Notes: generated by a model not told the origin, from the letters alone. DNA of 64,000 nucleotides from Alphaproteobacteria bacterium (GCA_963665325.3 CAXXWS020000002.1:800001-864000); one strand, 5' to 3'. Shown: positions 1 to 47,179, counted from the stretch's first letter. Numbers and translations are program-made.

Positions 1-404
1 GGCTCGTCGCGGTCTACGATCTCCCGCATCCGCTGTTCCAGTAGCGCAAGGTCGTCGGGCGTGAACGGCTCGGCGCGCGAGAAGTCGTAGTAGAAGCCGT
101 TCTCGATCACCGGGCCGATGGTGATCTGGACCTCCGGATAGAGCTCCTTCGCAGCCTCGGCGAGCGCATGGGCGGCGTCGTGGCGTATGAGGTCGAGGCC
201 GTCGGCATCGGTGCGCGTCACGATCTCGACCGCAGCATCGGCGGTAAACGGTTCCGACAGGTCGCGCAGCGCACCGTCCACCCTGACGGCAACGGCCGCC
301 TTCGCGAGGCTTCTGGAAATGGCCGCCGCAAGGTCGGCGCCGGTGCCGCCATGCGCGAAGGGGCGGACGGAACCGTCGGGCAATGTCAGGGCGATCTCGC
401 TCAT
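1..404 (-). CDS. thrS: Threonine--tRNA ligase, N-terminal part (runs off window; absent from ORF track)
   Basis: Manual translation from ATG at 404: [16 protein letters not shown]...[37 protein letters not shown] (TGS and editing-domain motifs of ThrRS). Confidence 0.95.
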
Positions 405-444
405 CGGAGTGGCAAATGTCCCGGAACTCGGAAAGGAGGCCGCA

Positions 445-472
445 ATCTAGAAAGCGCCGCTGCTGCGTCAAG
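445..472 (-). promoter_or_regulatory. Putative sigma70-type promoter of thrS
   Basis: Minus strand CTTGAC-N16-CTAGAT about 40 nt upstream of the thrS ATG; resembles the alphaproteobacterial CTTGAC..CTATAT consensus. Confidence 0.45.
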
Positions 473-507
473 CGAGGAGAAGCGCCCCCATCCGGTCGCC
501 GCGGCTC

Positions 508-1389
508 TTACGGCATGACCTTTACATCCGCGTTGCGCTCGACGGTGCGCAGCAGCTCGGTCACATCAGCCTCGCGGCCCAGATGGGCGAGCGAGGCCTG
601 GTGCAGCTCGCGCACGACATTGGCGACGAACATGGGCGCGGCGCTGTCGGAGCCGAGCTGGGTCGCCAGGCGTACATCCTTGTGCATCAGCGCCAATGCG
701 AAATCGAAGGGCTGCGGGCCCTCTGTCTGCGCGGCCAGCATGGCCTCCGACATGAAGCTTCGGCCCGAGCTCTTGTTCAGCACCTCGACGGCCCTGGCGA
801 AGTCGAGCCCGTTCTTGACCCCCATCGCGACCGCTTCGCAGGCAGCCGCATATGCGGAAGCGGCGGTCACATTGTTCACCAGCTTCATCACATGGCCCGT
901 CCCGACGCCGCCGCAATGGAAGACGTTGGGGCTGATGGCATGCAGCATCGGCAGCACCTCGGCGTAATCGGCATCCTCCGCGCCGACCATGATCGCGATG
1001 GTGCCGGCGTCCGCCCCCTTCTTGCCGCCCGAGACCGGCGCGTCGATCAGCCGGATGCCGCGCTCCGCGAGTTCCGCCGCCATGGCGCGCGTCGCATTCG
1101 GGTCGCCGGTCGTCTGGTCGAGGATGATGTTGCCCGGAGCCATACCCTCGGCAAGCCCGCCCGGCCCGAACACCGCCTGACGCACATTATCCGAGGTCGG
1201 CAGGCAGGTCAGCACGGTTCCGCACTCCGCGCCGAGTGCTGCGGCAGACTGGACCGGCGTGCAATTGTTGTCTGCCAGCGCCTGCATCGCCTCGGGGCGC
1301 AGGTCGAAGACGCGCAGCGGATGGGTGAGGGCGAGGCGGCGGGCCAGCGCGCCTCCCATGTTGCCGAGGCCGACATAGCCGATGCTCAT
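508..1389 (-). CDS. NAD(P)-dependent beta-hydroxyacid dehydrogenase (3-hydroxyisobutyrate dehydrogenase family)
   Basis: GYVGLGNMG Rossmann motif, DAPVSGG, catalytic MKLVNN, MHKDVRL. Confidence 0.9.
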   Translation of the reverse strand: MSIGYVGLGNMGGALARRLALTHPLRVFDLRPEAMQALADNNCTPVQSAAALGAECGTVLTCLPTSDNVRQAVFGPGGLAEGMAPGNIILDQTTGDPNATRAMAAELAERGIRLIDAPVSGGKKGADAGTIAIMVGAEDADYAEVLPMLHAISPNVFHCGGVGTGHVMKLVNNVTAASAYAAACEAVAMGVKNGLDFARAVEVLNKSSGRSFMSEAMLAAQTEGPQPFDFALALMHKDVRLATQLGSDSAAPMFVANVVRELHQASLAHLGREADVTELLRTVERNADVKVMP

Positions 1390-1488
1390 GGGGACGGTTC
1401 CTTCGTTTCCGATTTTCAGGCTATCCTATGCAGAATTCGCGCGCCGGAAAGCAGGATGGCCCCAAGGGGTGTCCGAGGAGTTCAGTCT

Positions 1489-2259
1489 ATGCCCGATTCC
1501 CATGCTGCCGACTATTCGATGCAGGACCGCGTAAGCCCCGAGGAATGGGCCATTCGCGTCGATCTCGCCGCGCTCTACCGCCTCTGCGCCCGGCACGGCA
1601 TGACCGACCTCACCTACACGCACCTCTCCGCGCGGGTGCCGGGCGACGAGGATGCGTTCCTCCTCAACCCCTGGGGCCTGCTGTTTGAGCAGGTGACAGC
1701 CTCGAACCTGGTCAAGGTCGACACGGAAGGCAATCTGCTGGGCGAGAACCGCTACGGGGTCAATGCCGCCGGTTTCACCATCCACTCTGCGGTCCACATG
1801 GCGCGGCACGATCTGATTTGCGTCGCGCATACCCACACCCGCACGGGCATTGCGATCTCGGCGCTGCCGCAGGGCCTCCGGCCGGTGAACCAGAAGGCGA
1901 TGCAGTTCCACGGGCGCCTCGCCTACCACGACTATGAGGGCATCGCCTTCGACCTCGGAGAGCGCGAGCGGCTGATCGCGGATCTGGGCGACGCGGATGC
2001 GATGGTGCTGAGGAACCATGGGTTTCTTGTCGGCGGACGCAGCATTCGCGAAGCCTGGGCGCGGCTCTACGACCTCGAAAAGGCTGCAAAGACGCAGATG
2101 CTCGCCGAGGCCTCCGGCGCGCCGCTCGCCACGCTCTCGGATGCATTCCTCGACGAGCAGAAGAACCGGCCGCGGCTGAACCGCAGCTACAATCCCTATG
2201 ACGGTTGGGAATCGCAGCTTCGCCTGCTGGACCGGGCCGACACCTCCTACCGGCACTGA
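1489..2259 (+). CDS. Class II aldolase/adducin family protein (paralog 1)
   Basis: GAGGAG SD before ATG 1489; RVDLAALYR, THLSARVP, IHSAVH, HTHT, LRNHG motifs. Confidence 0.9.
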   Translation: MPDSHAADYSMQDRVSPEEWAIRVDLAALYRLCARHGMTDLTYTHLSARVPGDEDAFLLNPWGLLFEQVTASNLVKVDTEGNLLGENRYGVNAAGFTIHSAVHMARHDLICVAHTHTRTGIAISALPQGLRPVNQKAMQFHGRLAYHDYEGIAFDLGERERLIADLGDADAMVLRNHGFLVGGRSIREAWARLYDLEKAAKTQMLAEASGAPLATLSDAFLDEQKNRPRLNRSYNPYDGWESQLRLLDRADTSYRH

Positions 2260-2278
2260 AACGGGAGCGCGTAGTCTC

Positions 2279-3046
2279 ATGCCCGACATCCGTTCCCGCG
2301 TCTCCGAGGCCGAATGGCAGGCGCGCACCGACCTGGCGGCCGTCTTCCGGCTGGCGGCGAAGCACGACCTTTCCGACTTGGCACTCACCCATTTCGCGGC
2401 GCGGGTGCCGGACGAACCCGACAGCTTCCTCCTCAACCCCTACGGGCTGATGTTCGAGGAGATGACCGCCTCCTCGCTGGTCAAGACAGACCGCGACGGC
2501 GGCGATCCGCTGGACACGGGCAGTCCGCTGAACGCGGTCGGGATCATGCTGCATTCCGCCGTGCTCGATGCTCGGTCGGACGTGGCCTGCACCGTGCATA
2601 CGCACACCGTGCCCGGCATGGCGATTTCTTCCCTGGACACCGAACTGCTGCCGGCTTCGCAGACCGCGCTGATCTTCCACGGGCGCGTCGGCTACCACGA
2701 CTGGGAGACCGACGAGACGGAGCTGGACGAGCGCGAGCGGCTCGCGCGCGATATCGGCTCCAACGGGCGGGCATTGATCCTGAAGAATCACGGCCTGTTG
2801 GCCGCCGGCCCCTCGATCCCGACAACCTGGATGCTGCTCCACGCTCTGGAACGGGCCTGCGCCTCGCAGCTGGACGCGATGGCGGCGACCCGCGCCGCCG
2901 GCGCCGGGCTCGAAATGCCGCGGGCGGAGGTTTGCGAGAGCACCGCCAGGCAGTTCGACGAGTTCCTGGCCCGGCCCAGCCGGGACGACGACTGGCCGGC
3001 CTATCTGGAACTGCTCGACCGGGAAGACCCGAGCTACAGGGAATAA
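2279..3046 (+). CDS. Class II aldolase/adducin family protein (paralog 2)
   Basis: RTDLAAVFR, THFAARVP, LHSAVL, HTHT, LKNHG motifs. Confidence 0.9.
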   Translation: MPDIRSRVSEAEWQARTDLAAVFRLAAKHDLSDLALTHFAARVPDEPDSFLLNPYGLMFEEMTASSLVKTDRDGGDPLDTGSPLNAVGIMLHSAVLDARSDVACTVHTHTVPGMAISSLDTELLPASQTALIFHGRVGYHDWETDETELDERERLARDIGSNGRALILKNHGLLAAGPSIPTTWMLLHALERACASQLDAMAATRAAGAGLEMPRAEVCESTARQFDEFLARPSRDDDWPAYLELLDREDPSYRE

Positions 3047-3101
3047 GCCGCCGAACGCCACCTAGCAGGGGAGAGCAGCCGCAAGGCTGCGCCGTCAAGC
3101 C

Positions 3102-3944
3102 ATGAACATGACCGAATCGAAAGTCGCGATGGACTATGCCCGCGACGGTTTCGTCTTTCCGCTCGATATCGTGACGCAGGCGGAAGCCGCGGAACTGCGC
3201 GCCGACCTGGAGAAGGGTGAGGCCGAGCTGGCCGATGACCGCAAGCGCCTCGGCCTGCTGCGCGGGTTCCCGGCGCGGTTCCTGCCGTCCTTCGACCGCC
3301 TCGTGCGCCATCCGAAGATGGTGGAAGCGGCTAAGGCGGTGCTCGGGCCGGATGTCATGGTCTGGGGCTCCGGGCTGTTCATCAAGGAGGCGAACACGCC
3401 GAGCTTCGTTTCCTGGCACCAGGACCTGACCTATTGGGGCCTCGACAAGGCCGAGGAGACGACCCTCTGGGTCGCGCTCTCGCCGACGACGCAGGAGAGC
3501 GGCTGCATGCGCTTCATCCCCGGCAGCCACCGGGAGCGCATCGTGCCGCATGCCGACAGCTTCGCCGCCGACAACCTGCTGACGCGCGGCCAGGAAATTC
3601 AGGTCGAGGTGGACGAAGAGGCCGCCGTCGATGTGGTGTTGAAGCCGGGCCAGGCCTCGCTGCACCATGGCCACCTGTTCCACGCCTCTGGCCCCAACCG
3701 CACGGGCGACCGGCGCATCGGGGCCGCCATCCGCTACATCGCGCCCTCCATGAGTGCGCGCTCCGGTCCGGAAACCGAGGTCGCGCTGGTGGCGGGCGAG
3801 GATCGCTTCGGGCACTTCGCCATCGTGCCCCCGCCGGCCCGTCGGATGGACGAAGCGGACTTCGAGACGGTCGCGGCCGATGCCGAACGGCGCGAGCAGA
3901 TCCTGTTCGACGGCACGGGCGGCCGCCGGCGCAAGCCGCGATAG
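3102..3944 (+). CDS. Phytanoyl-CoA dioxygenase (PhyH) family Fe(II)/2-oxoglutarate dioxygenase
   Basis: SWHQD (HxD), GCMRFIPGSH, LFHASGPN (distal His), DRRIG (2OG-binding Arg). Confidence 0.9.
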   Translation: MNMTESKVAMDYARDGFVFPLDIVTQAEAAELRADLEKGEAELADDRKRLGLLRGFPARFLPSFDRLVRHPKMVEAAKAVLGPDVMVWGSGLFIKEANTPSFVSWHQDLTYWGLDKAEETTLWVALSPTTQESGCMRFIPGSHRERIVPHADSFAADNLLTRGQEIQVEVDEEAAVDVVLKPGQASLHHGHLFHASGPNRTGDRRIGAAIRYIAPSMSARSGPETEVALVAGEDRFGHFAIVPPPARRMDEADFETVAADAERREQILFDGTGGRRRKPR

Positions 3945-4000
3945 CGGCGGCGGGACGCCCGGCCTCTCGATGTCGCCCGCGTAACGGGAGGGGAGTCGCG

Positions 4001-4912
4001 GTGACGGGCGCCGACTTGCCGAAGGCGCAGCCCGCGTTGACCTTCGCCGGATGCCGGTCTGCAACCCTTGAGGATATTCGCGCCGGTCTCGTGGTCTTCA
4101 GCGGGGTCGGCGGGGAACAGGCAAGCGCCAGCGGCGTCGCCGCGCGCCCATACGGATCGGCGGCATCGTCGGTGCGCGCGGCATCGAACGGCCTGCTGCG
4201 CCCCTATCGGGAGTCGCCCTCCGGCGTTGCGGTCGATCTCGACACGGGCCGGCGTTCAAGGTTGCGCGCCCCCGGTTCCTGCATCGATCTCGGCGATCTC
4301 GTGTCGTCCGGGGACCGGAACGACGCCTGCGCAACCCTCAGCGGCCGAATTGCCGAGGCGGGAGCGCGGCCTCTGTTCGTCGGCGGAGGCGATGAAGCAG
4401 CCCGAGGGTTGGCCGCCGGCATTTGCGGCGCACATTCGATGGTCGGTGCAATCGAAATCGGCGACCGCTGCCTCGCCGGACGCCTGGGCATTGCCGGACC
4501 GGTTCTTTCCCTCGGCGTCAGCGGGTTTCAGGACGTCGGGGTCTGGCGCCGGCAAATCGCGAACGGCGGCAGGATCGTGACGGCCGAACAGCTGCACGAC
4601 AACGGCCTCAATGCAGCGCGGGAGGGTTTGTCGGACTATGGCGGCGGCGATGCCGGACCTGTTTGCATCCTCGACTGCCGGGCGGTCGATATCGGCTACG
4701 CTGCCGGATGCGACAGCTTCACGGTCGGCGGCCTGACCCCGGAGCAGTTCGTTTCCCTGGCCGAACTGGCGGGCGCCTCGTCGCCACCCTCCGCAGCAGC
4801 GGTCATCCACCTCGATCCGGCCCGGGACCCGCGCGGCCACATGGAAAGCCTGGTCGCGGAGGCACTCCTTGCCCTCTTCCGGGATGCGCTCTTCCAGGAA
4901 ATCGAACCGTGA
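4001..4912 (+). CDS. Ureohydrolase (arginase/agmatinase)-fold protein A, metal ligands degenerate
   Basis: GTG start after GGGAG; TFAG, DLGD, FVGGGDE, ILDCRAVD, GGLTPEQ, HLDPARD follow the family motif order, but GGDH, DAHxD and DxD are absent; start codon inferred. Confidence 0.7.
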   Translation: MTGADLPKAQPALTFAGCRSATLEDIRAGLVVFSGVGGEQASASGVAARPYGSAASSVRAASNGLLRPYRESPSGVAVDLDTGRRSRLRAPGSCIDLGDLVSSGDRNDACATLSGRIAEAGARPLFVGGGDEAARGLAAGICGAHSMVGAIEIGDRCLAGRLGIAGPVLSLGVSGFQDVGVWRRQIANGGRIVTAEQLHDNGLNAAREGLSDYGGGDAGPVCILDCRAVDIGYAAGCDSFTVGGLTPEQFVSLAELAGASSPPSAAAVIHLDPARDPRGHMESLVAEALLALFRDALFQEIEP

Positions 4913-5826
4913 CGGTTGAAGCAGGGCGCGCGCCGGTCCCGGAGTCACTCTCCGGGGTGCCGACATTCTTCAATGCGCCGGTCGCCGATCTCGAAGATGT
5001 CGGACCCGGAGACGTGGCGGTCGTCGGCATCTACTGCGACCACTATGCCGAAGGCGAACCGGGCGCCCGTTTCCTTCCGCGGCAATTCCGCTATGCCTGC
5101 GCCCTCGACGGACGCGAGCCGCCGTCGGGCGTCTTCGATCTGGGCGATTTGAGCGTCTTTCCCCTCGAACCGGAGCGGTGCATGGAGGTCCTCTCGGATC
5201 AGGCCCTGCGGCTGACCGGAACGGGCGCGCACATGCTCGCAATCGGCGGGGATTACGGGCTGACGCCGGCGCTGCTGGCCGGTCTGCGTGCGGCGCGGCC
5301 TTCCGGGACGCTGGGCGTATTGCGCATCTCCGGTTCGGCCGACTTGGCCCCGAGCGGCACATCGGTTCTCGCGCGCACCGCCGCCAGCACCCGGATCCGG
5401 GCGATGGGAGGGGGCTTAGACGTTGCATTCGCCTGGCTGTCCGGCCCGGTGCCCGAGGCCGAAGCGGGCGCGCTCGCGGAAACGATATTCATCCCCGCGC
5501 GCGGCTGCCTCGGCGAAACGCCCGCCGGGATCGCGCCGCTTCGCGCCTGGGCCGAGAGCCAAGACCGCATCTATCTCAGTGTGGACGCCGATGTCCTGTC
5601 GCCCGCCTGCGCACGGACGGCGAGGGCCCGGCGACAAGGAGGCCTGTCTCATGGAGACGTGCTGAGGCTTCTCGATGCGCTCGGCCCACTGCATCCGGTC
5701 GGTGCTGAGTTCACCGGCCTTGTGCCGGACCTGGATGTTGCGGGACGCGGGCGCAGGACCATGTGCCTGGATTTGGTCGAGGCGCTGCTTTCCGGGGTGA
5801 TTGCGGGGCGCGACTCATGCCGCTGA
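4909..5826 (+). CDS. Ureohydrolase-fold protein B, metal ligands partly lost
   Basis: GVPTFF, GARFLPRQFR, DLGD, IGGDYG (H->Y), ISGSADL in place of DAHxD, LSVDADVL retained, GGLS; GTGA overlap with previous gene. Confidence 0.8.
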   Translation: MTVEAGRAPVPESLSGVPTFFNAPVADLEDVGPGDVAVVGIYCDHYAEGEPGARFLPRQFRYACALDGREPPSGVFDLGDLSVFPLEPERCMEVLSDQALRLTGTGAHMLAIGGDYGLTPALLAGLRAARPSGTLGVLRISGSADLAPSGTSVLARTAASTRIRAMGGGLDVAFAWLSGPVPEAEAGALAETIFIPARGCLGETPAGIAPLRAWAESQDRIYLSVDADVLSPACARTARARRQGGLSHGDVLRLLDALGPLHPVGAEFTGLVPDLDVAGRGRRTMCLDLVEALLSGVIAGRDSCR

Positions 5827-6752
5827 GGACGGCACCCCTGCCGCGCATGGCCGGACACCTCACCTTCATGCGTGTCGAGCATGCGGCGGCCGATGCGCTG
5901 GCGACCGGCAGTATCGGCCTCGTCGGCATTCCGCGCGAAGACACCGATACGCGCACAACCGGCGCCCGGTTCGGCCCGAATGCGATTCGCGAGACCTCCG
6001 TCTATTTCGGCTGGCATGCCAACCCGCAGTTCAGCCGTCCGATCGCTATCGGTGACCGCATGGCGATTGACACATCGTCGATACAGGCATGCCTCTTCGA
6101 TCTCGGGGACATCCCCGTAGGCGGGCTGACCGCGGAAGCCGGCGACGACCTCATCCGCGCAACGCTCGGACAAATTGCCCGTTCCGGAGCGTCCGCACTC
6201 GTTCTCGGCGGGGACAGCGGCATCGTGGTGCCGGCGCTGGAGGGCGTTGCCATGGAAACGCCGGCTGCCCGGGTCCAGATCGGAGGGTTCGCAAGCATGG
6301 CGGGGAGTGGCGGCCCTGCGCTCCATTTCGCTCCGCGCAGGATTGCTCCCGCCAAGGTAGCGCCGGATCGCGGCGCATCCCGCCCGACGATCGTGAGCGC
6401 CCGGCAACTGGCCGGCCTCGACGACGGCGCGATAAGCCGAATGGCGGAGCGCGCCGCCGGCGGACGTCCCCTGGCGGTGCATCTCGATCTCTCGGCGCTC
6501 AATTCCTGCTGGCACGGAGCCTCCGACATGCCGCGCTTCGACGGTCTGGCCCTGTCCAGGCTCAGGCGGGTGCTGACCGGGCTGGGCCGCCTTCCCGTTG
6601 CGATGCTCGTCGTGACGGGCCTGAACCCGACGCTCAGCGGCCTCGCAACGGTCAAGACCGGTCAGCGCCTGCTGGTGACCGCGCTGCTCGATTACATCTG
6701 CGCACGTCTGGGCGCGCCGGAGGACCGCAACCGCGAAGGGCGGACGGCATGA
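5817..6752 (+). CDS. Ureohydrolase-fold protein C, metal ligands degenerate
   Basis: GHLTFMR, GARFGPNAIRETS, DLGD, LGGDSG (H->S), VQIGG in place of DAHxD, VHLDLSAL in place of DxD. Confidence 0.8.
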   Translation: MPLRTAPLPRMAGHLTFMRVEHAAADALATGSIGLVGIPREDTDTRTTGARFGPNAIRETSVYFGWHANPQFSRPIAIGDRMAIDTSSIQACLFDLGDIPVGGLTAEAGDDLIRATLGQIARSGASALVLGGDSGIVVPALEGVAMETPAARVQIGGFASMAGSGGPALHFAPRRIAPAKVAPDRGASRPTIVSARQLAGLDDGAISRMAERAAGGRPLAVHLDLSALNSCWHGASDMPRFDGLALSRLRRVLTGLGRLPVAMLVVTGLNPTLSGLATVKTGQRLLVTALLDYICARLGAPEDRNREGRTA

Positions 6753-7750
6753 CGGTCCTGTCGTTCCAGCTGGCGGAACCGACGCTCTTCGATGTCGGGC
6801 GCTGCGATGCCGACCGGATCGAACCGGGGGAGGTCGGCGTCGTCGGCATGCCGTCGGACTGGACGCACGGGAGTCGAATCGGCACGCGCTTCGGGCCTTA
6901 TGCCGCACGCCGGGCCACAACCGGGCTCATGCGCTGGAGAGCGGCTAAATGCGCGGGCGGCGATCTGGTGGATCCCGTCGCTGGAACCCTTTGGCGGGGT
7001 CGGGACCGTCCTGCGATCCGGGATCTCGGAGACGCTCCCATCGATGCTCAGTCGGTGCAGGCCACGACCGCTTCGATTGCCGCGCTCACCCGGGCCGTTC
7101 GCGCCCGCGGCGGCGTCCCCCTTGCGGTCGGGGGCGACCACTACAACAGTTTCCCCGCCTGCCTCGGCTATGCGCGCGGCCTTGCCGAGCGCCATCCCTC
7201 CCGCCGCTTCGGGTATGTCCAGATCGACGGCCATCTGGACTTTTCCGACCGGCTCGGGGCCTGGGGCACGCACAATCATGCGACCAACGCCCGGCGCATA
7301 TCCGAGATCGGGAACATCGTGCCGCAGAACATGGTGTGGATCGGTATCGAGGGTTGGGTCGATGGTGGCGACCTCGCGCTGATCGACGAGATGGGCGGCC
7401 TGGTGCTCTCCGCCGCGGATGTCCACCGCCTCGGACCCGACGAAACCGTGGCGCGCGCTCTGGCCCATGCAACCCGCGGGTGCGAGAGCCTCTATCTGTC
7501 CATAGATATCGACGCGATGGACGCGGGCTTCCTTCCCGGAACCGGATCGATCGTCCATAGCGGCATTACGCCGAGGCAATATTGCCGCATGTTGGCCGCA
7601 CTCGCCTTCGCTCCGGTCGACGGGCTGGATATCGTTGAGCTCTCTCCGCCGCTCGACCCGTCCGGCCGCAGCGAGCGCATCGTGGCGCAGATGCTGGAGC
7701 ATGTGCTCCGTCCCTATCTCTACGAACGAGTCGAGGGGCGTCTTGCATGA
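6749..7750 (+). CDS. Ureohydrolase (agmatinase/guanidino-hydrolase family) D, catalytically intact
   Basis: GTRFGP, GGDHY, IDGHLDF, NHAT, LSIDIDAMD, PGTG, DIVELSPPLD give the full binuclear metal-site signature; ATGA overlap. Confidence 0.9.
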   Translation: MTVLSFQLAEPTLFDVGRCDADRIEPGEVGVVGMPSDWTHGSRIGTRFGPYAARRATTGLMRWRAAKCAGGDLVDPVAGTLWRGRDRPAIRDLGDAPIDAQSVQATTASIAALTRAVRARGGVPLAVGGDHYNSFPACLGYARGLAERHPSRRFGYVQIDGHLDFSDRLGAWGTHNHATNARRISEIGNIVPQNMVWIGIEGWVDGGDLALIDEMGGLVLSAADVHRLGPDETVARALAHATRGCESLYLSIDIDAMDAGFLPGTGSIVHSGITPRQYCRMLAALAFAPVDGLDIVELSPPLDPSGRSERIVAQMLEHVLRPYLYERVEGRLA

Positions 7751-7814
7751 TCCGGCGCAAGACGTCTCCCGCTTACACCCGGCTGCCCGACAATTTGCAC
7801 TGAGGAGCGCGACC

Positions 7815-8798
7815 ATGCGTATCGCCATCGAAGACGCCCACGTCCTGCTGACCGGCGTGATGGCGAAGCTCGGCTACGAGGCGGGCGACATCCCCGCCAT
7901 CGTGGACCATCTGATCGACAGCGAGCTTCGCGGGCTCTCATATGGCGGCCTGGCGCGGGCGGTGTCGATTACCGAGCGCATCGGGCGCACCGGGATGCCC
8001 TCCCGGCCCATGACGGTCACGCACGAGACGCCGGTTTCGGCCCGGATCGACGGCTCGGACCATCTCGGCTACCTCGTCGGCCAGCGCGCGACCGACATGG
8101 CCATCGGGAAGGCCAGTGCGATGGGCCTCTCGGCCGTCGGCGCGATCGATACCTGGTACACGGGCATGCTCAGCTACTTCGCCGAGCAGGCGGCGGCCCG
8201 CGACCTCGTGACGATGATCGCTTCCAACGCTTCGCCCTGGGTGGCGCCACACGGGGCTGTAGAGGGTCGATTCGGCACCAACCCGATGTGTTTCGGCTTT
8301 CCTTCGACTGGCCACCCCATCGTCTGGGATATAGGCACCAGCAACATCATGCATGCCGAGGTGCTGCTCGCCCGCCGTCAGGGCGTTCGGTTGCCGGAAG
8401 GCCGCGCCTTCGGTCCCGACGGCCGGCCGACCACCGATCCCGACGCGGCGCTGGCAGGCGCGTTCACGAGCTGGGGCGGGCACAAGGGCTCCGGCCTCGG
8501 CCTGGTCGTGCAGATGCTGGGGGTGCTGGCCGGCTCCGATGGCATGACTCCCGACCTTGCCGGGTTCGGCATGGTCATCGTCGCCATCCGCCCCGATATT
8601 TTCGGCGACACGGACGGATTCAAGCAGCGCATCGCTGACTATGCGGAGGCGGTGCGGACGGCGAAGCCCGCCGATCCGGCAAAGCCCGTCCGAATGCCCT
8701 TCGACCGCTCATGGGCCGTGCGCGAGGCCGCGAGGGCCTCGGGCGCCTTCGAGGCGGACGAAGCCATCGTCGAGCAGCTGCGGGCGTTCGTCGGCTAG
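7815..8798 (+). CDS. Ldh_2 family (AllD/DpkA/ComC-like) NAD(P)-dependent oxidoreductase
   Basis: GAGGAG SD; FGTNPMCFGFP, WDIGTS, PTTDP, GGHKGSGL, VRMP motifs. Confidence 0.88.
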   Translation: MRIAIEDAHVLLTGVMAKLGYEAGDIPAIVDHLIDSELRGLSYGGLARAVSITERIGRTGMPSRPMTVTHETPVSARIDGSDHLGYLVGQRATDMAIGKASAMGLSAVGAIDTWYTGMLSYFAEQAAARDLVTMIASNASPWVAPHGAVEGRFGTNPMCFGFPSTGHPIVWDIGTSNIMHAEVLLARRQGVRLPEGRAFGPDGRPTTDPDAALAGAFTSWGGHKGSGLGLVVQMLGVLAGSDGMTPDLAGFGMVIVAIRPDIFGDTDGFKQRIADYAEAVRTAKPADPAKPVRMPFDRSWAVREAARASGAFEADEAIVEQLRAFVG

Positions 8799-8810
8799 GA
8801 GCGCCTGAAG

Positions 8811-9299
8811 GTGGGCGGGGAACCGATAGCAATTGTCGAGGCCTCGCGGGCCGATGAAATCGCCGAAATTCGGGCGCTCTTCGCGGAATACCAGCAATGG
8901 CTGGGCGAAGACCTCTCCTTCCAGGACTTCCCGGCGGAACTGGACTCGCTGGCGGAGTTGTATGCGCCGCCGGAAGGGCTGCTGTTGCTCGCCCGCGCCC
9001 CTGACGGAGCGGTGGCCGGCGGCGTCGGCATGAAGGGGCTGGAACCCGGCATCTGCGAAATGAAACGCCTCTTTGTCCGCCCGTCCTGGCGCGGCCACGG
9101 CTTGGGACGCTCGCTGGCCGAGGCGGTCGTGCAGGCAGGACGGGATGCGGGCTACGCGTTCATGCGCCTCGACACGCTGGCCCGCCTGGAAGAGGCGGTC
9201 GCGCTCTACCGGTCGATCGGCTTCTACGAGATCGCGCCCTATTACGAGAACCCGATGGACGGCGTGTTCTATCTGGAAAAGGCGCTGGGCCGAGGGTGA
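8811..9299 (+). CDS. GNAT family N-acetyltransferase
   Basis: CEMKRLFVRP, RGHGLG acetyl-CoA motif, RLDTL, ALYRSIGF. Confidence 0.9.
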   Translation: MGGEPIAIVEASRADEIAEIRALFAEYQQWLGEDLSFQDFPAELDSLAELYAPPEGLLLLARAPDGAVAGGVGMKGLEPGICEMKRLFVRPSWRGHGLGRSLAEAVVQAGRDAGYAFMRLDTLARLEEAVALYRSIGFYEIAPYYENPMDGVFYLEKALGRG

Positions 9300-9377
9300 C
9301 GACGGCGGGCGAAACGATGCAGAATGGCCGCAATCGAACGGGATGGCGGCAGAATTGCCGCGAACTGGGGGAAGCGC

Positions 9378-10160
9378 ATGGAATTCGAGGGCCGGACCGT
9401 CATCGTGACGGGAGCGGGCACCGGTGTGGGAGCAGCTGCCGCGCAACGTCTCGCCGGGGGCGGCGCGAAGGTGATCGTCAACTACTCCCGCAGCCGGGAC
9501 GAGGCGGAGGCCGTGGCGGCCGCTTGCCGGGAGGCGGGCGGCGAGGCCGCGGCGGTGCAGGGCGATGTGGCGGACGAGGACGATTGCAAGCGCCTGGCCG
9601 GGGAAGCCGTGTCGCGCTGGGGCCGGATCGACGGCCTCATCAACAGCGCGGGCACCACGGTGTTCCGGCCCGGCAACGACTTCGACACACTCTCCCAGGA
9701 GGACTTCCAGCGCATCTACAGCGTGAATGTGGTCGGGGCCTTCCTGATGACGCGGGCGGTGTCGGCGCAGATGAAATCCCAGGGCCGGGGCAGCGTCGTC
9801 AATATCTCGTCGATTGCCGGCGTGATGGGCGTGGGCAGCTCCATCGCCTATGCCGCATCGAAAGGCGCGCTCAACACCCTGACCCTGTCGCTCGCGCGTG
9901 CGCTTGCGCCTGAAATTCGCGTCAACACGGTGGCGCCCGGTTTCATAACCGGCCGCTGGTGGCGGGAGAAGATGGGCGAGGGTTACGACAAGATGGTCGC
10001 TAACACCGAGGCGGCGACGCCGCTCAAGCGAGCCGGGACTCCCGAGGACATGGCGGCAGCGGCGGTCTGGCTGCTCTGCGGCGATGTCAACATTACCGGC
10101 GAAATCCTGATCTCGGACGCCGGGATGCACTTGGGCGCGGCGCCGTTGAAGGCGCGGTAG
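9378..10160 (+). CDS. Short-chain dehydrogenase/reductase
   Basis: TGAGTGVG, NSAG, SS, YAASK, RVNTVAPG. Confidence 0.92.
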   Translation: MEFEGRTVIVTGAGTGVGAAAAQRLAGGGAKVIVNYSRSRDEAEAVAAACREAGGEAAAVQGDVADEDDCKRLAGEAVSRWGRIDGLINSAGTTVFRPGNDFDTLSQEDFQRIYSVNVVGAFLMTRAVSAQMKSQGRGSVVNISSIAGVMGVGSSIAYAASKGALNTLTLSLARALAPEIRVNTVAPGFITGRWWREKMGEGYDKMVANTEAATPLKRAGTPEDMAAAAVWLLCGDVNITGEILISDAGMHLGAAPLKAR

Positions 10161-10185
10161 GGCACGTCCGGAACGCGCCTCGGAC

Positions 10186-10797
10186 TCAGAGCGCGGCCGC
10201 GCGGGCGAAGGCGGGGCGGGCTGTCGTGCGGTCCCAGTAGGCCTGGATGTTCGGCGTGAAGGCTTCTGCGATGCCGAGCCGCCCGGCGAAATGCAGCGCC
10301 CAGACGATGGCGATATCGGCAATGGTGAAGCGCCCGGAACAGAGGTAGTCGCGCGTTTCCAGCGCGGCCTCCAGCACGCGCAGCCGGGCGAGGAACCAGA
10401 CCCGGTAATCCTCCACGACCTGCGGCAGGCGCCGTTCCTCCGGCTCCAGGTCGCGGTAACGGAACACCAGCGTCTGCGGGAAGGTCAGGGTTGCGTCGCT
10501 GCGGTGCAGCCAGTCGAGCCAGAGGGGAAAGTCCGGCTCGTGCGCCGCAACCCGGAGCGGCGTCGGGCCGTAGCGGTCCACCAGATAGTGGCAGATGGCC
10601 CCGGACTCCGTCATCCAAGCGTCGCCGTCGATCAGGCAAGGCACCGTGCCAAGCGGATTGACCTGCTTGTAGTCCTTGTGATGCGCGCGCGGCGGGAACT
10701 CCAGCGTCACCAGCTCGTAGTCGAGCTCCATCTCCTCCAGCGTCCACACACACCGCATCGAGCGCGCATGCGCGCAGTGGTAAAGCTTGATCGCCAT
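10186..10797 (-). CDS. Glutathione S-transferase family protein
   Basis: ARSMR, NPLGTVP, ESGAI, FTIADI motifs. Confidence 0.92.
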   Translation of the reverse strand: MAIKLYHCAHARSMRCVWTLEEMELDYELVTLEFPPRAHHKDYKQVNPLGTVPCLIDGDAWMTESGAICHYLVDRYGPTPLRVAAHEPDFPLWLDWLHRSDATLTFPQTLVFRYRDLEPEERRLPQVVEDYRVWFLARLRVLEAALETRDYLCSGRFTIADIAIVWALHFAGRLGIAEAFTPNIQAYWDRTTARPAFARAAAL

Positions 10798-10972
10798 GGC
10801 CTGTATTCCCGTACGCCACCGGGTCTCGTTGTTGCAAGATTAGAGCGGGATCATTCAATTGAGAATTGGAAGGGAAATCTCCCAAATCCTTTGCCTGAGT
10901 CAATACGTCCACACGGCCTCGCGACACCGGATTGCCCCCGGTCGCGGCAGGCCATTGGACGGAGCGGCGGCT

Positions 10973-11536
10973 TTAACGGTTTGCGCCGGGAACCCAGAGA
11001 ATGTCGGCCCCGCCCTTGTCGTTGACCAGCCGGGCGGCGACGAAGAGGTGGTCCGAGAGGCGGTTGATATAGTGCCGTGCGGCTTCGCCTACCGGCTCTT
11101 CCCGCGCCAGTGCCGTCATCGAGCGCTCCGCCCGCCGGGCCGTCGTGCGAGCAAGGTGCAGCGCCGCCGCCGCCGCCGACCCACCTGGCAGCACGAAGGA
11201 GTTGAGCGGCGCGAGGCCGGCGTTCATGGCATCGATCTCGGCCTCCAGCCGGAGAACCTGTTCGGGCACGACGCGCAGGGCGCCGGAGCGCCGTTCGCCG
11301 CCCTCCGGCGTGCAGAGGTCCGCGCCCAGGTCGAACAGGTCGTTCTGGATGCGCGCCAGCATCTCATCTATCTCCCCGGATGTATGGAGGCGCGCGAGGC
11401 CGATGCAGGCATTGGTCTCATCCACCGCGCCGAATGCCTCGACGCGAACGCTGTCCTTTGCGACGCGCGCACCGTTGCCGAGCGAAGTCTCGCCCCTGTC
11501 GCCGCCCCGTGTGTAGATTTTCGTGAGCCGGACCAT
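10973..11536 (-). CDS. PduO-type ATP:cob(I)alamin adenosyltransferase
   Basis: MVRLTKIYTRGGDRGETSL, FVLPGG, ARRAER, INRLSDHLF. Confidence 0.93.
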   Translation of the reverse strand: MVRLTKIYTRGGDRGETSLGNGARVAKDSVRVEAFGAVDETNACIGLARLHTSGEIDEMLARIQNDLFDLGADLCTPEGGERRSGALRVVPEQVLRLEAEIDAMNAGLAPLNSFVLPGGSAAAAALHLARTTARRAERSMTALAREEPVGEAARHYINRLSDHLFVAARLVNDKGGADILWVPGANR

Positions 11537-11721: not shown

Positions 11722-11733
11722 GCGACGGCTCTT

Positions 11734-12027: not shown

Positions 12028-12092
12028 GGCGGCACTGTTCCCGTAACCGACATTCGGTTGCGAACGTAACCTATGGCCCGCCCCGGGGTGCG

Positions 12093-13271
12093 TCAATCGG
12101 AACGCGCCGCGAGCGCCGCCTCGGCGTCGTAGCCGTAGAGCCAGATCTGGCCGGGCGGAAAGCCGCCGCGATACTCCGCGCGGTCCTTCGCCAGCTTGGC
12201 ATTGCGAACAGCAACTTCGGCTGGGTCCGCGAGCAGGCAGTGGCGCTCGATGGCGCGGGACCAGCCCTGCACCCGGTTGGCGCGGTCGCGGCGCAATGCC
12301 TCGTAGCGGGCGAGGCCGGTCTCACCCTTGTCCTCGGCGAGGCAGCCGGCCAGCACCCAGGCGTCCTCCAGACTCATCGCGGCGCCCTGGGCATGGTAGG
12401 GCATCATGGCGTGCGCTGCGTCGCCGATCAGCGTCGTCCGCCCGACGGTCCAGGCCGGCAGACCCTCGCGGTCGAACAGCGCCCATTCGTGCACGGCCTC
12501 CGTGCGTTCCACCATGCGCGTGACCGTGGCTGGGAAGGGCGCCATCGCCGCAGCGGCGTCCTCCACGCGGCCGAGGCGGGACCAGGATTCCGGCGTCTCG
12601 CGGTCGATGCGTGCAATCGCGATCCAGTTCATCAACCGCCCGGCCGAGACCCAATAGCGCACCATGCACGAGTCCGGCCCCCACCAGACGCCGGACTCGC
12701 GCGGAATGTCCAGATCGGCCAGGCGCTCGGCCGGAACCAGCGCCCGCCACGCGACCGAGCCCGAGTCCCGCGCATTGCCGGTGCCGAATAGATGCCGGCG
12801 CACCGGGCTGTGGATTCCGTCAGCACCGATGACGACATCGGCCTCGACGGTCTCGCCGTCCGCAAGCGCGAGGCGTCCTTCGTCCATGGCGACGACCTGC
12901 GATCCGAGCCGTATCCTCCCCGGTGGCTGGCGGTTGAGCAGTCCGTCCAGCAAATCCGCCCGGTGGGCGTGGTAGTAGGGATAGCCAAAGGTCTCGCGTG
13001 CTTCCCGGCCGAGCGGGGCCTCCACCAGGGTCTCGCCTTCATGGCTGCGGATCGCAAGCCCGCCCGGCTCGACGCCCCACCCGGCCATGTCGTCTTCGAG
13101 GCCGAGCCAATTCAGGATACGGGTCGCGTTCGGGCTGAGCTGGATGCCGGCGCCCACGGGCTCGATACGCGGCGCCTGCTCCAGCACCAGGGCGTCGATG
13201 CCGCGCTTTGCGAGGGAGAGGGACAGGGCCAGCCCGCCGATGCCGGCGCCGACGATAACGATCCGTGACAT
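12093..13271 (-). CDS. FAD-dependent monooxygenase (salicylate-hydroxylase-like, group A)
   Basis: GAGIGG, GAGIQLSPN, IGADGIHS, LIGDAAHAMMPYHAQGA. Confidence 0.9.
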   Translation of the reverse strand: MSRIVIVGAGIGGLALSLSLAKRGIDALVLEQAPRIEPVGAGIQLSPNATRILNWLGLEDDMAGWGVEPGGLAIRSHEGETLVEAPLGREARETFGYPYYHAHRADLLDGLLNRQPPGRIRLGSQVVAMDEGRLALADGETVEADVVIGADGIHSPVRRHLFGTGNARDSGSVAWRALVPAERLADLDIPRESGVWWGPDSCMVRYWVSAGRLMNWIAIARIDRETPESWSRLGRVEDAAAAMAPFPATVTRMVERTEAVHEWALFDREGLPAWTVGRTTLIGDAAHAMMPYHAQGAAMSLEDAWVLAGCLAEDKGETGLARYEALRRDRANRVQGWSRAIERHCLLADPAEVAVRNAKLAKDRAEYRGGFPPGQIWLYGYDAEAALAARSD

Positions 13272-13290
13272 GCAAATGCGCTCCGGGGGC

Positions 13291-14922
13291 TCAGTTGCGG
13301 CGTTCCAGAAGGCCGCGCGCGATGACATGGGCCTGTATCTCAGCCGCGCCCTCGAAGATGTTGAGGATGCGGGCGTCGCAGAGGATCCGCCCCACCTCGT
13401 ATTCCTGCGCGTAGCCGTTGCCGCCATGCACCTGCACGGCATTGTCGGCATTGGCCCAGGCGGCGCGCGCCGCGAGCAGCTTTGCCATGCCGGCCTCGAT
13501 GTCGCAGCGCCGTCCGTTGTCCTTCTCGCGCGCGGCGAAATAGGCGAGCTGGCGGGCGATCTGGGTTTCGACCGCCATCCAGGCGATCTTGCCGGCGACG
13601 CGCGGGAAGCCGAGGATCGCCTTACCGAACTGCCTGCGGCCGGCAGCGTAGTCCAGCGCAAGCTCCATCGCGCGCTCCGCTACGCCCACTGACCGCGCCG
13701 CGGTCTGGATGCGGGCGCTCTCGAAGGTCGCCATCAACTGCTTGAAGCCCTGTCCTTCCTCGCGTCCGAGCAGGTCTCCGGCATCCACCTCGAAGCCGTC
13801 GAAGCCGATGTCGTATTCCTTCATGCCGCGATAGCCGAGCACCGGAATCTCGCCGCCGTCGATGCCGGGGTCGGGGAAGGGGTTGCCGTCGTCGCCGCGC
13901 GTCTTCGGGGCAAGGAACATGGAGAGGCCCCGATAACCGGGCGTGTCGGGGTCGGTGCGGGCGAGCAGGGTCATCAGGTCGGCGCGCGCCGCATGGGTGA
14001 TCCAGGTCTTCGCGCCGGAAATCCGGTAGGTGCTGCCGTCCCGGACCGCGCGGGTGCGCACGCCGCCGAGGTCCGAGCCGACGTCGGGCTCGGTGAACAC
14101 GGCGGTCGGCAGCACGGCGCCGCTCGCAATGTCCGCGAGCCAGCGTTCCTTCTGCTCCTTTGTGCCGCCGAGCCGGATCAGCTCGGCCGCGATCTCGGAA
14201 CGGGTGCCGAGCGAGCCGACGCCGATATAGCCGCGCGACAGCTCTTCGGTGACCACGCACATGGCCACTTTGCCCATGCCGAGCCCGCCCCATTCTTCCG
14301 GCACGGTGAGGCCGAACACGCCCATATCCGCCATGTCCCCGACAACGGCCATCGGAATGAGCTCGTCGCGGCTGTGCCATCCGTGGGCCGGCCCGACGAT
14401 GCGCTCGTCCGCGAATCGGCGGAACTGGTCCCGCACCAGGGCCAGCGACTCGTCCTCCAGTCCGTCGGACGGCCTCTGGCCCTCGGCAAGCAGGGCGGCA
14501 ATTTCCATGCGTGCGGCGTTCGAATTGCCCTCGGCTGCGACGCGCTCGACGGCAGGACCGCGCAGTGCCGCGCCGTCGAGGCCGAGGTCCGCGGGCCGGA
14601 CCACTTCTCCCTGCGAGACCGCGATGCCGCCGGAAAGCTGCGCCAGATACTCCCCGAAGGCCGCTTGCAGGACGAGCCGGTCCAGCTCCGTGAGGGCGTC
14701 GGAGGCTTCGAGTCGCCGCCCCCAGCCGAGCATTTCGCGCAGGCCCGCGACATAAGTTGCGATCCAGGCAAAACCGTGGGCGGCGAACTGATCGCGTTCC
14801 AGTGCGGCGGGGTCGGTCCGACCGCCGGCCTGCACACGCGCCGCAACGCCGCCGCGCGCGTCATCGAGATAGGCCTCGGCTGCGGCGAGTGCCTCTTCGA
14901 GGAGGGAGATCGGGAGGGTCAT
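13291..14922 (-). CDS. mcd: Acyl-CoA dehydrogenase, probably (2S)-methylsuccinyl-CoA dehydrogenase (ethylmalonyl-CoA pathway)
   Basis: 543 aa with N-terminal extension QFAAHGFAWIATY; GSLGTRSEIA, VLGYRGMKEY, FESARIQTAAR, IFEGAAEIQ. Confidence 0.8.
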   Translation of the reverse strand: MTLPISLLEEALAAAEAYLDDARGGVAARVQAGGRTDPAALERDQFAAHGFAWIATYVAGLREMLGWGRRLEASDALTELDRLVLQAAFGEYLAQLSGGIAVSQGEVVRPADLGLDGAALRGPAVERVAAEGNSNAARMEIAALLAEGQRPSDGLEDESLALVRDQFRRFADERIVGPAHGWHSRDELIPMAVVGDMADMGVFGLTVPEEWGGLGMGKVAMCVVTEELSRGYIGVGSLGTRSEIAAELIRLGGTKEQKERWLADIASGAVLPTAVFTEPDVGSDLGGVRTRAVRDGSTYRISGAKTWITHAARADLMTLLARTDPDTPGYRGLSMFLAPKTRGDDGNPFPDPGIDGGEIPVLGYRGMKEYDIGFDGFEVDAGDLLGREEGQGFKQLMATFESARIQTAARSVGVAERAMELALDYAAGRRQFGKAILGFPRVAGKIAWMAVETQIARQLAYFAAREKDNGRRCDIEAGMAKLLAARAAWANADNAVQVHGGNGYAQEYEVGRILCDARILNIFEGAAEIQAHVIARGLLERRN

Positions 14923-16851: not shown

Positions 16852-17973
16852 TCAAAGCAGCGGCTGCTGGCCGCCATTGTCGCCGAAGGCCTGTTCGCGG
16901 TAGAGGCCGAGGGCGCGCATGACCGGCAGGTCGGAGAGGCAGAACAGGCAGGTGTCGTCGGTGTCCGAGGCGTTGGCGTGTTCGTGCCACGCCCAGGACG
17001 GCACGCAGAAGATGTCGCGCTCGGTCCAGTCGTAGCGCTTGCCGTCGATGACCGAATGGCCGCTGCCCTTCGCGACCTGATAGAGGAAGCTGCCGGTGTG
17101 GCGGTGCGCCTTCGTGCGCTCGCCCGGCCGCAGCAATTGCATGCTGGCGCCTATTGTCTGCATCACGGGGCCGTTGGTCGCCGGGTTCACATATTCCATC
17201 AATACGCCGTCATGGGGTGAGCCGTCAGTGCAGGAGGCGTAGTTGCAGAGCGCTTCGTAGGTCCGCCGCCACTCATACTTGAACAGCGGCGAATAGCCCT
17301 TGCTCCAAGTGCCACCGCCCGGCGTCAGCCCCGGATTTCCCCAGGTGCTCGTCACGTCGTCGACCTCGTACGCCACGGCTTGCGCGAGGTCGGGATGCAC
17401 CTCGTAGAAATTCGCCTCCATGGCGTTGACGAAGGGGATGTCCAGACCGTCCTGCCAGATGCAGGGGCTGCCCGAGGCCTCGACCCCGTGCTCATGCCAG
17501 GTGCCGTTCGGCGTCAGTACGAAGTCGTTTGCGCCGAGCGTGATCTTGTGCCCGTCGACGACGGTGTAGGCGCCTTCGCCCTCCATGATGAAGCGGATTG
17601 CGGAGGCCGAGTGGCGATGCGCGCTCGCCGCCTCTCCCGGGTTCATCGCCTGCAGCCCGGCATAGATCCAGCCCACAGCCGCCGCGACCTCCGTGCGGCC
17701 CGGATTGTTGAGATAGACGACCCGGCGGCCCGCCTCTTCCGGCGTCACCAGATCGAGGGACCTCAGGACGTGTTCGCGGAGGTCCCGGTAACGCCAGACG
17801 ACCGGGATCGATTGCGATACCGGCTCCCACGGTTCGATCTTGTTGGCGACCGTCCACAAGGCACCCGCGCGATGCCTGTCGAGTTCGTCGTAGTAAGCCA
17901 GCAGTTCCGGCGTATCCCGGACATTCGCCCTGCCGGGAACGTCTTCACGGTAGTTCTCGTGCTTCCTGCCCAA
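16852..17973 (-). CDS. Bicupin ring-cleavage dioxygenase, gentisate 1,2-dioxygenase family
   Basis: RRVVYLNNPG, AHRHSASAIRF, WHEHG, WQDGLDIP, second cupin AHRHTGS / VPSWAWHEH; TTG start uncertain. Confidence 0.85.
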   Translation of the reverse strand: MGRKHENYREDVPGRANVRDTPELLAYYDELDRHRAGALWTVANKIEPWEPVSQSIPVVWRYRDLREHVLRSLDLVTPEEAGRRVVYLNNPGRTEVAAAVGWIYAGLQAMNPGEAASAHRHSASAIRFIMEGEGAYTVVDGHKITLGANDFVLTPNGTWHEHGVEASGSPCIWQDGLDIPFVNAMEANFYEVHPDLAQAVAYEVDDVTSTWGNPGLTPGGGTWSKGYSPLFKYEWRRTYEALCNYASCTDGSPHDGVLMEYVNPATNGPVMQTIGASMQLLRPGERTKAHRHTGSFLYQVAKGSGHSVIDGKRYDWTERDIFCVPSWAWHEHANASDTDDTCLFCLSDLPVMRALGLYREQAFGDNGGQQPLL

Positions 17974-46492: not shown

Positions 46493-47179
46493 CTAAACCA
46501 CCTTCACCTCAATCCGCCCCACACCCTCGACTTCGCCTTCGAGGCGGTCGCCGGTGGAGACGGCGGCGACGCCGGCGGGGGTGCCGGTCATGATGAGGTC
46601 GCCCGGCATGAGGGCGAAGAGTGCCGAAATGTGTGCGATCACCTCCGGCAGGCTCCAGATCATCTGCGAGATGTCCCCGTCCTGCCTGAGCTCGCCATTG
46701 ACATGCAGGCGCACCGCACCCGTCTCGGGATGGCCGATCTCGCTCGCCATAACCACGGGTGAGCAGGGCGCGGCGTGGTCGAACGCCTTGCCGATCTCCC
46801 AGGGCCGGCCGAGCTGCTTGGCGACGCCCTGGAGGTCGCGTCGCGTCATGTCGAGGCCGGCGGCATAGCCGAAGACATGGCCGAGCGCGTCCTCTTCGCG
46901 GATGTCCCGCCCGCCGGTGCCGATGGCGGCCACCAGCTCCATCTCGTGGTGCAGGTCAGCCGTGCCGGGCGGGTAGGGCATGTCGCCGCCGCCTGCGACG
47001 ATGGAAGTCGCGGGCTTCATGAAGAAGAAGGGCGGTTCGCGGTCCGGGTCGTGGCCCATCTCGCGGGTATGCTCGGCATAGTTGCGGCCGACGCAGAATA
47101 TCCGGCCGACTGGAAAGACCGCCTCCGATCCTTTGACCGCCAGGACCGTCATGGCCGGGGCCGGAACCGCATAAGTCAT
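46493..47179 (-). CDS. Fumarylacetoacetate hydrolase family protein (acylpyruvate hydrolase-like)
   Basis: IFCVGRNYAEH, PFFFMKP, HHEMEL, DMTRRDLQ, GKAFD, TGTPAGV. Confidence 0.92.
   Translation of the reverse strand: MTYAVPAPAMTVLAVKGSEAVFPVGRIFCVGRNYAEHTREMGHDPDREPPFFFMKPATSIVAGGGDMPYPPGTADLHHEMELVAAIGTGGRDIREEDALGHVFGYAAGLDMTRRDLQGVAKQLGRPWEIGKAFDHAAPCSPVVMASEIGHPETGAVRLHVNGELRQDGDISQMIWSLPEVIAHISALFALMPGDLIMTGTPAGVAAVSTGDRLEGEVEGVGRIEVKVV

Follow-up and report, generated by a model that had tools for sequence, protein, structure and literature searches.

Why would a bacterium encode four paralogs of a single hydrolase fold end to end, when only one of them retains the residues that hold the binuclear metal centre? 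This question is raised by a 64,000-nucleotide stretch of DNA from an Alphaproteobacteria bacterium (GCA_963665325.3, CAXXWS020000002.1:800001-864000; hereafter the window), in which positions 4001 to 7750 are occupied by four overlapping genes, A to D, of the arginase/ureohydrolase superfamily. A preliminary description of the window had proposed that these genes encode a heteromeric hydrolase with one live subunit and three pseudoenzyme subunits, an elaboration of the two-gene arrangement known from metformin hydrolase. The analysis reported here leads us to favour, by a modest degree, the reading that A to D are a conserved, coupled module for a hetero-oligomeric ureohydrolase, in which D would be the catalytic subunit and A, B and C would be non-catalytic.

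Four overlapping genes of the arginase superfamily

The four genes lie in a single run on the same strand, behind a candidate ribosome-binding sequence:

3986..3995, + strand: Shine-Dalgarno-like GGGAGGGGAG, read from the sequence, 5 nucleotides (nt) upstream of the GTG of gene A at 4001
4001..4912, + strand: gene A, 303 amino acids (aa), GTG start, arginase-fold open reading frame (ORF)
4909..5826, + strand: gene B, 305 aa, GTG start, arginase-fold ORF
5817..6752, + strand: gene C, 311 aa, ATG start, arginase-fold ORF
6749..7750, + strand: gene D, 333 aa, ATG start, ureohydrolase, the presumed catalytic subunit

Read directly, the junctions consist of a 4-nt overlap between A and B (GTGA, 4909-4912), a 10-nt overlap between B and C (ATG at 5817, TGA at 5824-5826) and a second 4-nt overlap between C and D (ATGA, 6749-6752), with purine-rich stretches 9-14 nt 5' of the internal starts of B, C and D. 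The genes are translationally coupled. The starts assigned to A, B and C agree with the N-termini of their relatives in the family alignments, and no internal stop codon is present in any of the four genes. Because four adjacent members of one Pfam family are joined here by precise stop/start overlaps, the arrangement is not a product of chance. The G+C content at third codon positions (GC3) is 0.773-0.788 in all four array genes, against 0.82-0.89 in eight flanking genes, in a window with an overall G+C content of ~68%; the level common to A-D is consistent with a shared origin as a unit. The array also stands out as a compositionally distinct block, which may reflect either acquisition as a unit or lower expression.

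All four proteins score above the gathering threshold (22 bits) of the Pfam Arginase profile (PF00491), with 32.4 bits for A, 78.0 for B, 58.4 for C and 178.9 for D, and are members of the arginase/ureohydrolase superfamily. Pairwise identity between D and the other three proteins is 26-28% in each case, and the motif DLGD, present in all four proteins, is among the few invariant columns. AlphaFold2 (AF2) modelling and Foldseek searches were run on A and C, the weakest Pfam cases, while the fold of B and D was judged from sequence. The model of A has a predicted local distance difference test score (pLDDT) of 76.3 and a predicted template modelling score (pTM) of 0.82, and its top matches in the PDB are MefH, arginase and agmatinase, at template modelling (TM) scores of 0.6-0.7; the model of C (pLDDT 78.9, pTM 0.82) matches agmatinase, MefH and GdmH. 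The matches of the two models to agmatinase, arginase and MefH all have a probability of 1.00 and TM scores of 0.6-0.7, and A and C are thus predicted to fold as ureohydrolases, with the three-layer alpha/beta/alpha architecture.

Profile and sequence comparisons with the PDB place the array in the same company. The A-family profile matches structures of formimidoylglutamase, guanidinobutyrase and GdmH at E-values of 3e-10 to 3e-8. Its best-scoring matches were TALE repeat proteins, which we rejected as an artefact: a short GLTPEQ(F/V)V-like motif is summed over the repeats, and no single stretch is significant. The best match of B is the agmatinase 1wog (3e-13), and those of D are the 3-guanidinopropionase 3nip (1.4e-28) and GdmH 7esr (4.6e-26), with the MefH subunits following at 3e-14 and 4e-11. 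None of A-D reaches any curated cut-off among the NCBIfam equivalogs, and A-C lie far below D, for which the scores and cut-offs are 113 and 302 (NF002564, agmatinase), 99.7 and 174.3 (TIGR01230), 96.8 and 229 (hutG) and 68.7 and 227.6 (rocF, arginase). As D falls below every one of these cut-offs, its substrate is not transferable from its homomeric relatives.

D is the ligand-complete member of the array

The binuclear metal cluster of this superfamily is coordinated by six residues, which we take to be H101, D124, H126, D128, D232 and D234 in rat arginase numbering. These columns were read after aligning the relatives of each protein to D, with sequences shorter than 250 aa left out, and give the following picture:

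D: six of six ligands, HDHDDD (H131, D160, H162, D164, D253, D255), with the E and NH motifs also present
A family (10 sequences including the window protein): one of six ligands; D232 kept in 10/10, H126 replaced by R in 10/10, D234 replaced by R in 9/10
B family (11 sequences including the window protein): three of six ligands; D128 kept in 10/11, D232 and D234 kept in 11/11, D124 replaced by S in 11/11
C family (121 sequences, the window protein and the 120 listed of 213 matches): one of six ligands; D232 kept in 121/121

The H101 column of the B family aligns as a gap and reads by eye as Y/F. In the same 121 sequences of the C family, D124 is replaced by G in 119, D234 by S or T in every one, and the equivalent of E277 by G, again in all. 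The changes are evident in the local motifs, which read GGDE and DCR in A; GGDY, SGSAD and DAD in B; GGDS, IGG and DLS in C; and GGDH, DGHLD, NH, DIDAMD and VE in D. From these residues, D alone could be a ureohydrolase enzyme of the classical type and appears to be the only subunit able to hold a binuclear metal centre.

The preliminary description had drawn the same outline of the locus, and at this level it holds up well. Its gene boundaries and its GTGA, 10-nt and ATGA overlaps are those read at the junctions, every motif that it quoted for the four proteins is present, A, B and C are full length and free of stops as it had reported, and its assertion that D alone is ligand-complete agrees with the ligand counts above. 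The profile search against the Arginase family, which it had recommended for each ORF, puts A, B, C and D above the cut-off.

Loss of ligands extends beyond the array itself. The 51 relatives of D that are at least 250 aa long, taken from the top 62 representatives, include 36 that keep all six ligands and eight that carry two or more substitutions; degenerate paralogs are therefore common around the D subfamily. Several of the ligand-substituted relatives (within P0231-P0292) show the pattern HS(Q/R)DDD, which is reminiscent of B, and in the phylogenetic tree described below one relative of D (P0272) adjoins the A family and another (P0286) adjoins B and C. Further degenerate lineages exist.

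A, B and C appear to be old and conserved lineages

Searches of 5.8 billion clustered proteins returned families of very different size. A has nine relatives, at 93-30% identity and all of 298-320 aa. B has 10 close relatives (94-33% identity, 286-305 aa), below which there is a gap to generic agmatinases at ~29%. C has 213 matches, 120 of them listed, among which are clusters of 143 and 491 member sequences from marine surveys and metagenome-assembled genomes labelled Gammaproteobacteria and Desulfococcaceae; a search of the ESM Atlas with C returned only clusters named 'arginase family protein', mostly from Pseudomonadota. C thus appears to represent a large, widespread and strongly conserved family of metal-less arginase-fold proteins, found for the most part without recognisable A or B relatives. 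The source databases label members of this family (P0014-P0133) 'agmatinase' or 'arginase family protein'; as the name of an enzyme, 'agmatinase' is very unlikely to be right.

Each family carries conserved motifs of its own. Those of the A family are RGH and GYAAG. In the B family a near-invariant GIYCDH (Cys-Asp-His) replaces the usual G-x-P-x-D, and the three Asp ligands are kept; B could conceivably retain part of the metal site or have a different one. In the C family RETSVYFGWHANPQFS and VKTGQRL are invariant across 55 sequences. The invariant loop of C (E59-P75) falls in a low-confidence part of the AF2 monomer, where the blocks over residues 61-80 have pLDDT values of 60 and 46, and the model is at most suggestive of a loop that becomes ordered only against a partner.

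A tree of 72 sequences (10 A, 11 B, 18 of 121 C, 21 of 52 D-type and 12 generic agmatinases from the search with B) recovers A, B and C each as monophyletic, with support of 100 in the Shimodaira-Hasegawa-like approximate likelihood ratio test (SH-aLRT). The stems measure 1.03 (A), 1.18 (B) and 1.24 (C) substitutions per site, and the internal branches are short and conserved. The joining of B with C in this tree may be due to long-branch attraction, as the program warned. For a comparison of rates, representatives of D were set beside the relatives of A-C by tier of identity, their membership of the same genomes being assumed. Identity to the window proteins is 68% for A, 73% for B, 69% for C and 64-69% for fragments of D in the first tier, and 48%, 55%, 60% and 57% for A, B, C and D in the second; the tree paths from the window to the second tier are 0.96, 0.93, 0.74 and 0.89, respectively. 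On this comparison, the dead paralogs appear to diverge no faster than D. Truncated relatives of A-C are limited to one C fragment, on a 989-bp contig.

These observations suggest that A, B and C are three old and separate lineages, each full-length and conserved. Because full-length relatives extend to 30-48% identity with the degenerate ligand pattern fixed, the sequence record indicates that A-C are maintained by selection and are not decaying.

Relatives of A, B and C occur on common contigs

Co-occurrence was inferred from longest contigs of identical size in the cluster listings. On this measure, relatives of A and B lie together on contigs of 16491, 58584 and 2514 bp, relatives of all three on a contig of 17437 bp, those of A and C on one of 24594 bp and those of B and C on one of 368860 bp. 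The relatives of A, B and C thus appear to travel together, on six contigs. The 2514-bp contig encodes an A relative of 309 aa and a B relative of 305 aa, which must therefore be adjacent.

The link between C and D comes from a single protein of 440 aa (P0065), encoded on a 4616-bp contig. Its residues 1-323 are of the C type, 45% identical to C of the window, while residues 353-428 match the N-terminus of D (47% over 77 aa, E-value 6e-16), including the motif VGMP(S/T)DWTH. A C-type sequence followed by a D-type one indicates that the C-to-D gene order is present in a lineage as distant as this identity implies. The C-terminal 88 residues of this protein, which form the D-type N-terminus, may reflect a true fusion, read-through or a frameshifted assembly.

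Other collections gave no second copy of the array. No A-type gene was recovered from representative genomes with two peptide patterns drawn from the A-family alignment. The single locus that a pattern search of genome contigs returned for the A family (L001; 32 pattern matches) was rejected as a false positive, since the match is 21 residues long and no Arginase domain is present in the four ORFs scanned. A tblastn search of 72,556 plasmids gave no match to A and only generic agmatinase-like genes for B, C and D, none above 36% identity among the matches listed; the array is therefore not in this plasmid collection. The suggestion that the same gene set be sought elsewhere was thus answered in part: relatives of A, B and C share six contigs, and the plasmid collection is without the array.

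Relation to known heteromeric and metal-less ureohydrolases

The array resembles the metformin hydrolases (MefH, MfmAB, MetCaCb) and dimethylguanidine hydrolase (DmgH), which are Ni-dependent heterohexamers likewise encoded by adjacent arginase-fold paralogs, one of them ligand-complete and its partner deficient. According to the available portions of two reports (PMC11399263; PMC11271267), MefH/MetCaCb is an alpha2beta4 assembly built from two alpha-beta2 trimers. Alpha alone has retained the ligands and binds Ni; each subunit is inactive by itself, the solubility of alpha is poor when beta is missing, and an N-terminal loop of beta caps the pocket of alpha. The same portions describe the beta subunits of MefH/MetCaCb and DmgH as essential and non-catalytic, with 3-5 of the six ligands lost, and so bear out the precedent of an active subunit paired with a ligand-deficient one to which the preliminary description had appealed. 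MefH/MetCaCb contains one dead paralog, whereas the array has three different ones.

The array nevertheless lies outside the MetCa and MetCb clades. D matches GpuA at 1.4e-28 and the MefH chains 14-17 orders of magnitude more weakly, B matches MetCb only at 1.3e-4, and A, B and C match the MefH chains no better than they match other ureohydrolases. Most MetCaCb-like pairs are linked to HypA/HypB-type nickel chaperone genes, according to the available text of PMC11271267, whereas a Pfam scan of 85 ORFs of the 64-kb window detected no HypA, HypB, UreG or urease domain; the absence of HypA and HypB from the window had been remarked on before. Because the array falls outside these clades and carries no such chaperone genes in the window, these comparisons indicate that it is an independent origin of the MefH/MetCaCb idea.

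Pairs of a live and a degenerate arginase-family gene are also known more widely, the available text of Li et al. (2024; PMC11271267) describing 56 of them in bacteria, widely distributed and mostly of unknown substrate. They resemble the array in combining live and degenerate ureohydrolases, but are pairs only. Searches of the full-text literature, which did not extend to the supplementary list of pairs in PMC11271267, turned up accounts of heteromeric ureohydrolases in the form of gene pairs only and no four-paralog system, in keeping with the earlier statement that no quartet had been described.

The closest solved relatives of D are GpuA (3nip), GbuA (3nio), GdmH (7esr) and a Nitrospira guanidinase (9fek), at E-values of 1e-28 to 5e-18. 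Like D, these enzymes have the full ligand set and the agmatinase-type N-terminal motif, but they are single-gene homo-oligomers, unlike the four-gene array. B matches PDB entry 4rhi and related chains, listed as 'Arginase', at 1.7e-5 to 1.2e-4; these entries are presumably the Trypanosoma brucei arginase-like protein. Like A-C, stand-alone metal-less arginase-like proteins of the T. brucei type adopt the arginase fold and lack the binuclear cluster, but they are eukaryotic, of unknown function and not encoded beside a live paralog, whereas A-C adjoin D.

Genomic neighbourhood of the array

The genes on either side of the array on the same strand, and, further along the window, those of a gentisate-type set and an FAA-hydrolase, are as follows:

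1561..3046, + strand: two adjacent class II aldolase/adducin-family paralogs (PRK07044 subfamily; NCBIfam NF005451, 311 and 261 bits, cut-off 207)
3102..3944, + strand: PhyH-family Fe(II)/2-oxoglutarate dioxygenase with an HQD motif (hydroxylase type), 56 nt before A (Pfam PhyH, 3.2e-34)
7815..8798, + strand: Ldh_2-family oxidoreductase, with GAGGAG before its start (Pfam/NCBIfam)
8811..9299, + strand: GNAT acetyltransferase (Pfam/NCBIfam)
9324..10160, + strand: SDR (Pfam/NCBIfam)
10186..10797, - strand: GST/maleylpyruvate-isomerase-like gene
12093..13661, - strand: 3-hydroxybenzoate 6-monooxygenase-like FAD enzyme
16852..17973, - strand: gentisate 1,2-dioxygenase
46493..47179: FAA-hydrolase

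Judged by their spacing, the PhyH, Ldh_2, GNAT and SDR genes may share an operon with the array. Together with the two aldolase-like proteins, these same-strand neighbours point weakly to a pathway that degrades or modifies an unusual guanidino compound, which may be hydroxylated. The aldolase-family paralogs (1561-2259 and 2198-3046, the start of the second being approximate) are a further pair of paralogs within this putative operon, and the opposite strand carries a HIBADH-like gene upstream. A search of the whole window with Rfam found no guanidine or other riboswitch and one tRNA only, and counts of predicted promoters and terminators over positions 1-11000 were not above the expectation from shuffled sequence. 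Further from the array there is a gentisate-type aromatic catabolism set at 10186-17973, and at 42713-46068 a gene of the N-formylglutamate amidohydrolase family runs into the start of a DAO and GCV_T fusion (dimethylglycine/sarcosine dehydrogenase-like). Otherwise the window carries ordinary chromosomal genes, among them rpsA, the ribonucleotide reductase (RNR) beta gene, addAB-like genes, glyQS, ppdK and trp genes.

Discussion

The array is a real, selected and unusual module, probably more elaborate than the two-subunit metformin hydrolase. In the hetero-oligomer that we favour, D would hydrolyse the guanidino or amidino group of its substrate to give urea and an amine, a chemistry taken from the family as a whole, and A, B and C would take the places that D leaves free in the ring, a trimer or a dimer of trimers, that is usual for the fold. 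By analogy with the beta subunit of metformin/dimethylguanidine hydrolase, A-C would probably keep D soluble, form or cap the entrance of its pocket and set substrate specificity. The two beta positions of an alpha-beta2 trimer are not equivalent, and their occupation by different paralogs would be a plausible next step. Given the wide distribution of C, and a distant C relative that continues straight into a D-type frame, the pair C+D is probably the older part of the module, to which A and B were probably added in particular lineages. How the four proteins associate and in what ratio, what A-C do and what D acts on are, in this account, what we infer from the genes and their relatives.

Much of the four-gene heteromer as first proposed stands: the fold, the ligand status, the selection on A-C and the coupling, to which the co-occurrence of A, B and C relatives is now added, together with the judgement that simple decay does not account for the degenerate genes, to which the full-length relatives at 30-48% identity, the fixed ligand patterns and a divergence no faster than that of D now give substance. 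What has to be given up is its kinship with MetCa and MetCb, to whose clades the array does not belong, and with it the picture of an elaborated pair, as the dead paralogs are not recent offshoots of one pair and instead represent three old, separate lineages.

Several points weigh against the hetero-oligomer. Binding among A-D is predicted only; a prediction of the complex of D with C, each supplied with its family alignment, gave a score of 0.01 and a mark of 0.32 in a run without controls, and bears neither way on binding. Four types of subunit would fit a threefold or 32-symmetric ring poorly, and a single complex of all four would be less likely than a heteromer of some kind. The A and B families are tiny, with nine and 10 relatives against at least 213 for C, and since A and B are this rare, most C-family proteins work without them and the quartet is not obligatory. 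The co-residence of D with A-C elsewhere is drawn from identity tiers and from one fused or read-through ORF, and the 64-kb window has no HypA/HypB-type chaperones among the 85 ORFs scanned, unlike the surroundings of most MetCaCb-like pairs. D could be active on its own, because it is closer to the homomeric GpuA and GdmH than to MetCa. Finally, the conserved motifs of B (GIYCDH and the three kept Asp residues) and of C could mark new functions other than scaffolding. Within the hetero-oligomeric reading, we therefore regard a particle that contains all four proteins as a doubtful prospect. We hold as equally tentative the furthest form of the idea, in which one asymmetric particle would draw each ring position from a different gene and the C family, some of whose clusters hold hundreds of marine sequences, would be a general partner of D-type hydrolases acting on a common environmental guanidino compound that has so far escaped notice.

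An alternative of lower standing is that the module makes separate assemblies, an old C+D heteromer being the enzyme and A and B forming, for instance, a hetero-oligomer that serves the same pathway as a regulator, a chaperone-like factor or a ligand-binding protein. This would account for the wide distribution of C without detectable A or B relatives (213 matches against nine and 10), for the protein that joins C directly to D and for the presence of A and B together on four of the six shared contigs, and the ring symmetry of known ureohydrolases suits two or three subunit types better than four. It is less easily reconciled with the overlap coupling of all four genes in a single run, with their one GC3 level and with the 17437-bp contig on which relatives of A, B and C occur together, and no function is known for A or B; we consider it rather unlikely. 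An equally improbable reading is that each of the three degenerate proteins has taken on a new function of its own, such as metal-independent or mononuclear catalysis or the binding of a guanidino ligand, and that they serve beside D as consecutive pathway steps or sensors, with no complex formed. The family-specific invariant motifs, which are unrelated to the lost ligands, would fit such functions, as would the retention of D128, D232 and D234 in 10-11 of the 11 members of the B family, and metal-less arginase-fold proteins of unknown function are on record in prokaryotes and eukaryotes (Li et al., available text of PMC11271267). An alternative active site in A-C is hypothetical, however, and the tight coupling of paralogs of an obligately oligomeric fold favours co-assembly; in the available portions of PMC11399263 and PMC11271267, moreover, the only characterised metal-less ureohydrolase paralogs encoded beside a live one are partner subunits. 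That A-C are decaying tandem duplicates of D, pseudogenes left open by chance, would explain their lost ligands and a GC3 somewhat below that of the neighbours, but D has the same GC3, and with full-length relatives bearing fixed ligand-site substitutions, monophyletic families on long stems (1.03-1.24) with short, conserved internal branches, and a divergence no faster than that of D, this explanation is refuted at the protein level and its likelihood is negligible. Among these accounts, the hetero-oligomeric ureohydrolase with D as its catalytic subunit is the one that we retain.

Heteromeric ureohydrolases were recognised only in 2024, and as pairs only. If the hetero-oligomeric reading is correct, three distinct and selected pseudoenzyme paralogs around one live subunit would represent subunit differentiation in an old homo-oligomeric fold far beyond that seen in pairs; they would offer a natural case for how duplicated subunits specialise by ring position and would point to an uncharacterised guanidino-compound pathway. 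Should all four proteins prove to share one particle, it would be the first fully differentiated hetero-oligomer in the arginase superfamily. The C family matters independently of the quartet, as a large, strongly conserved and metal-less group of proteins that is automatically annotated 'agmatinase'.

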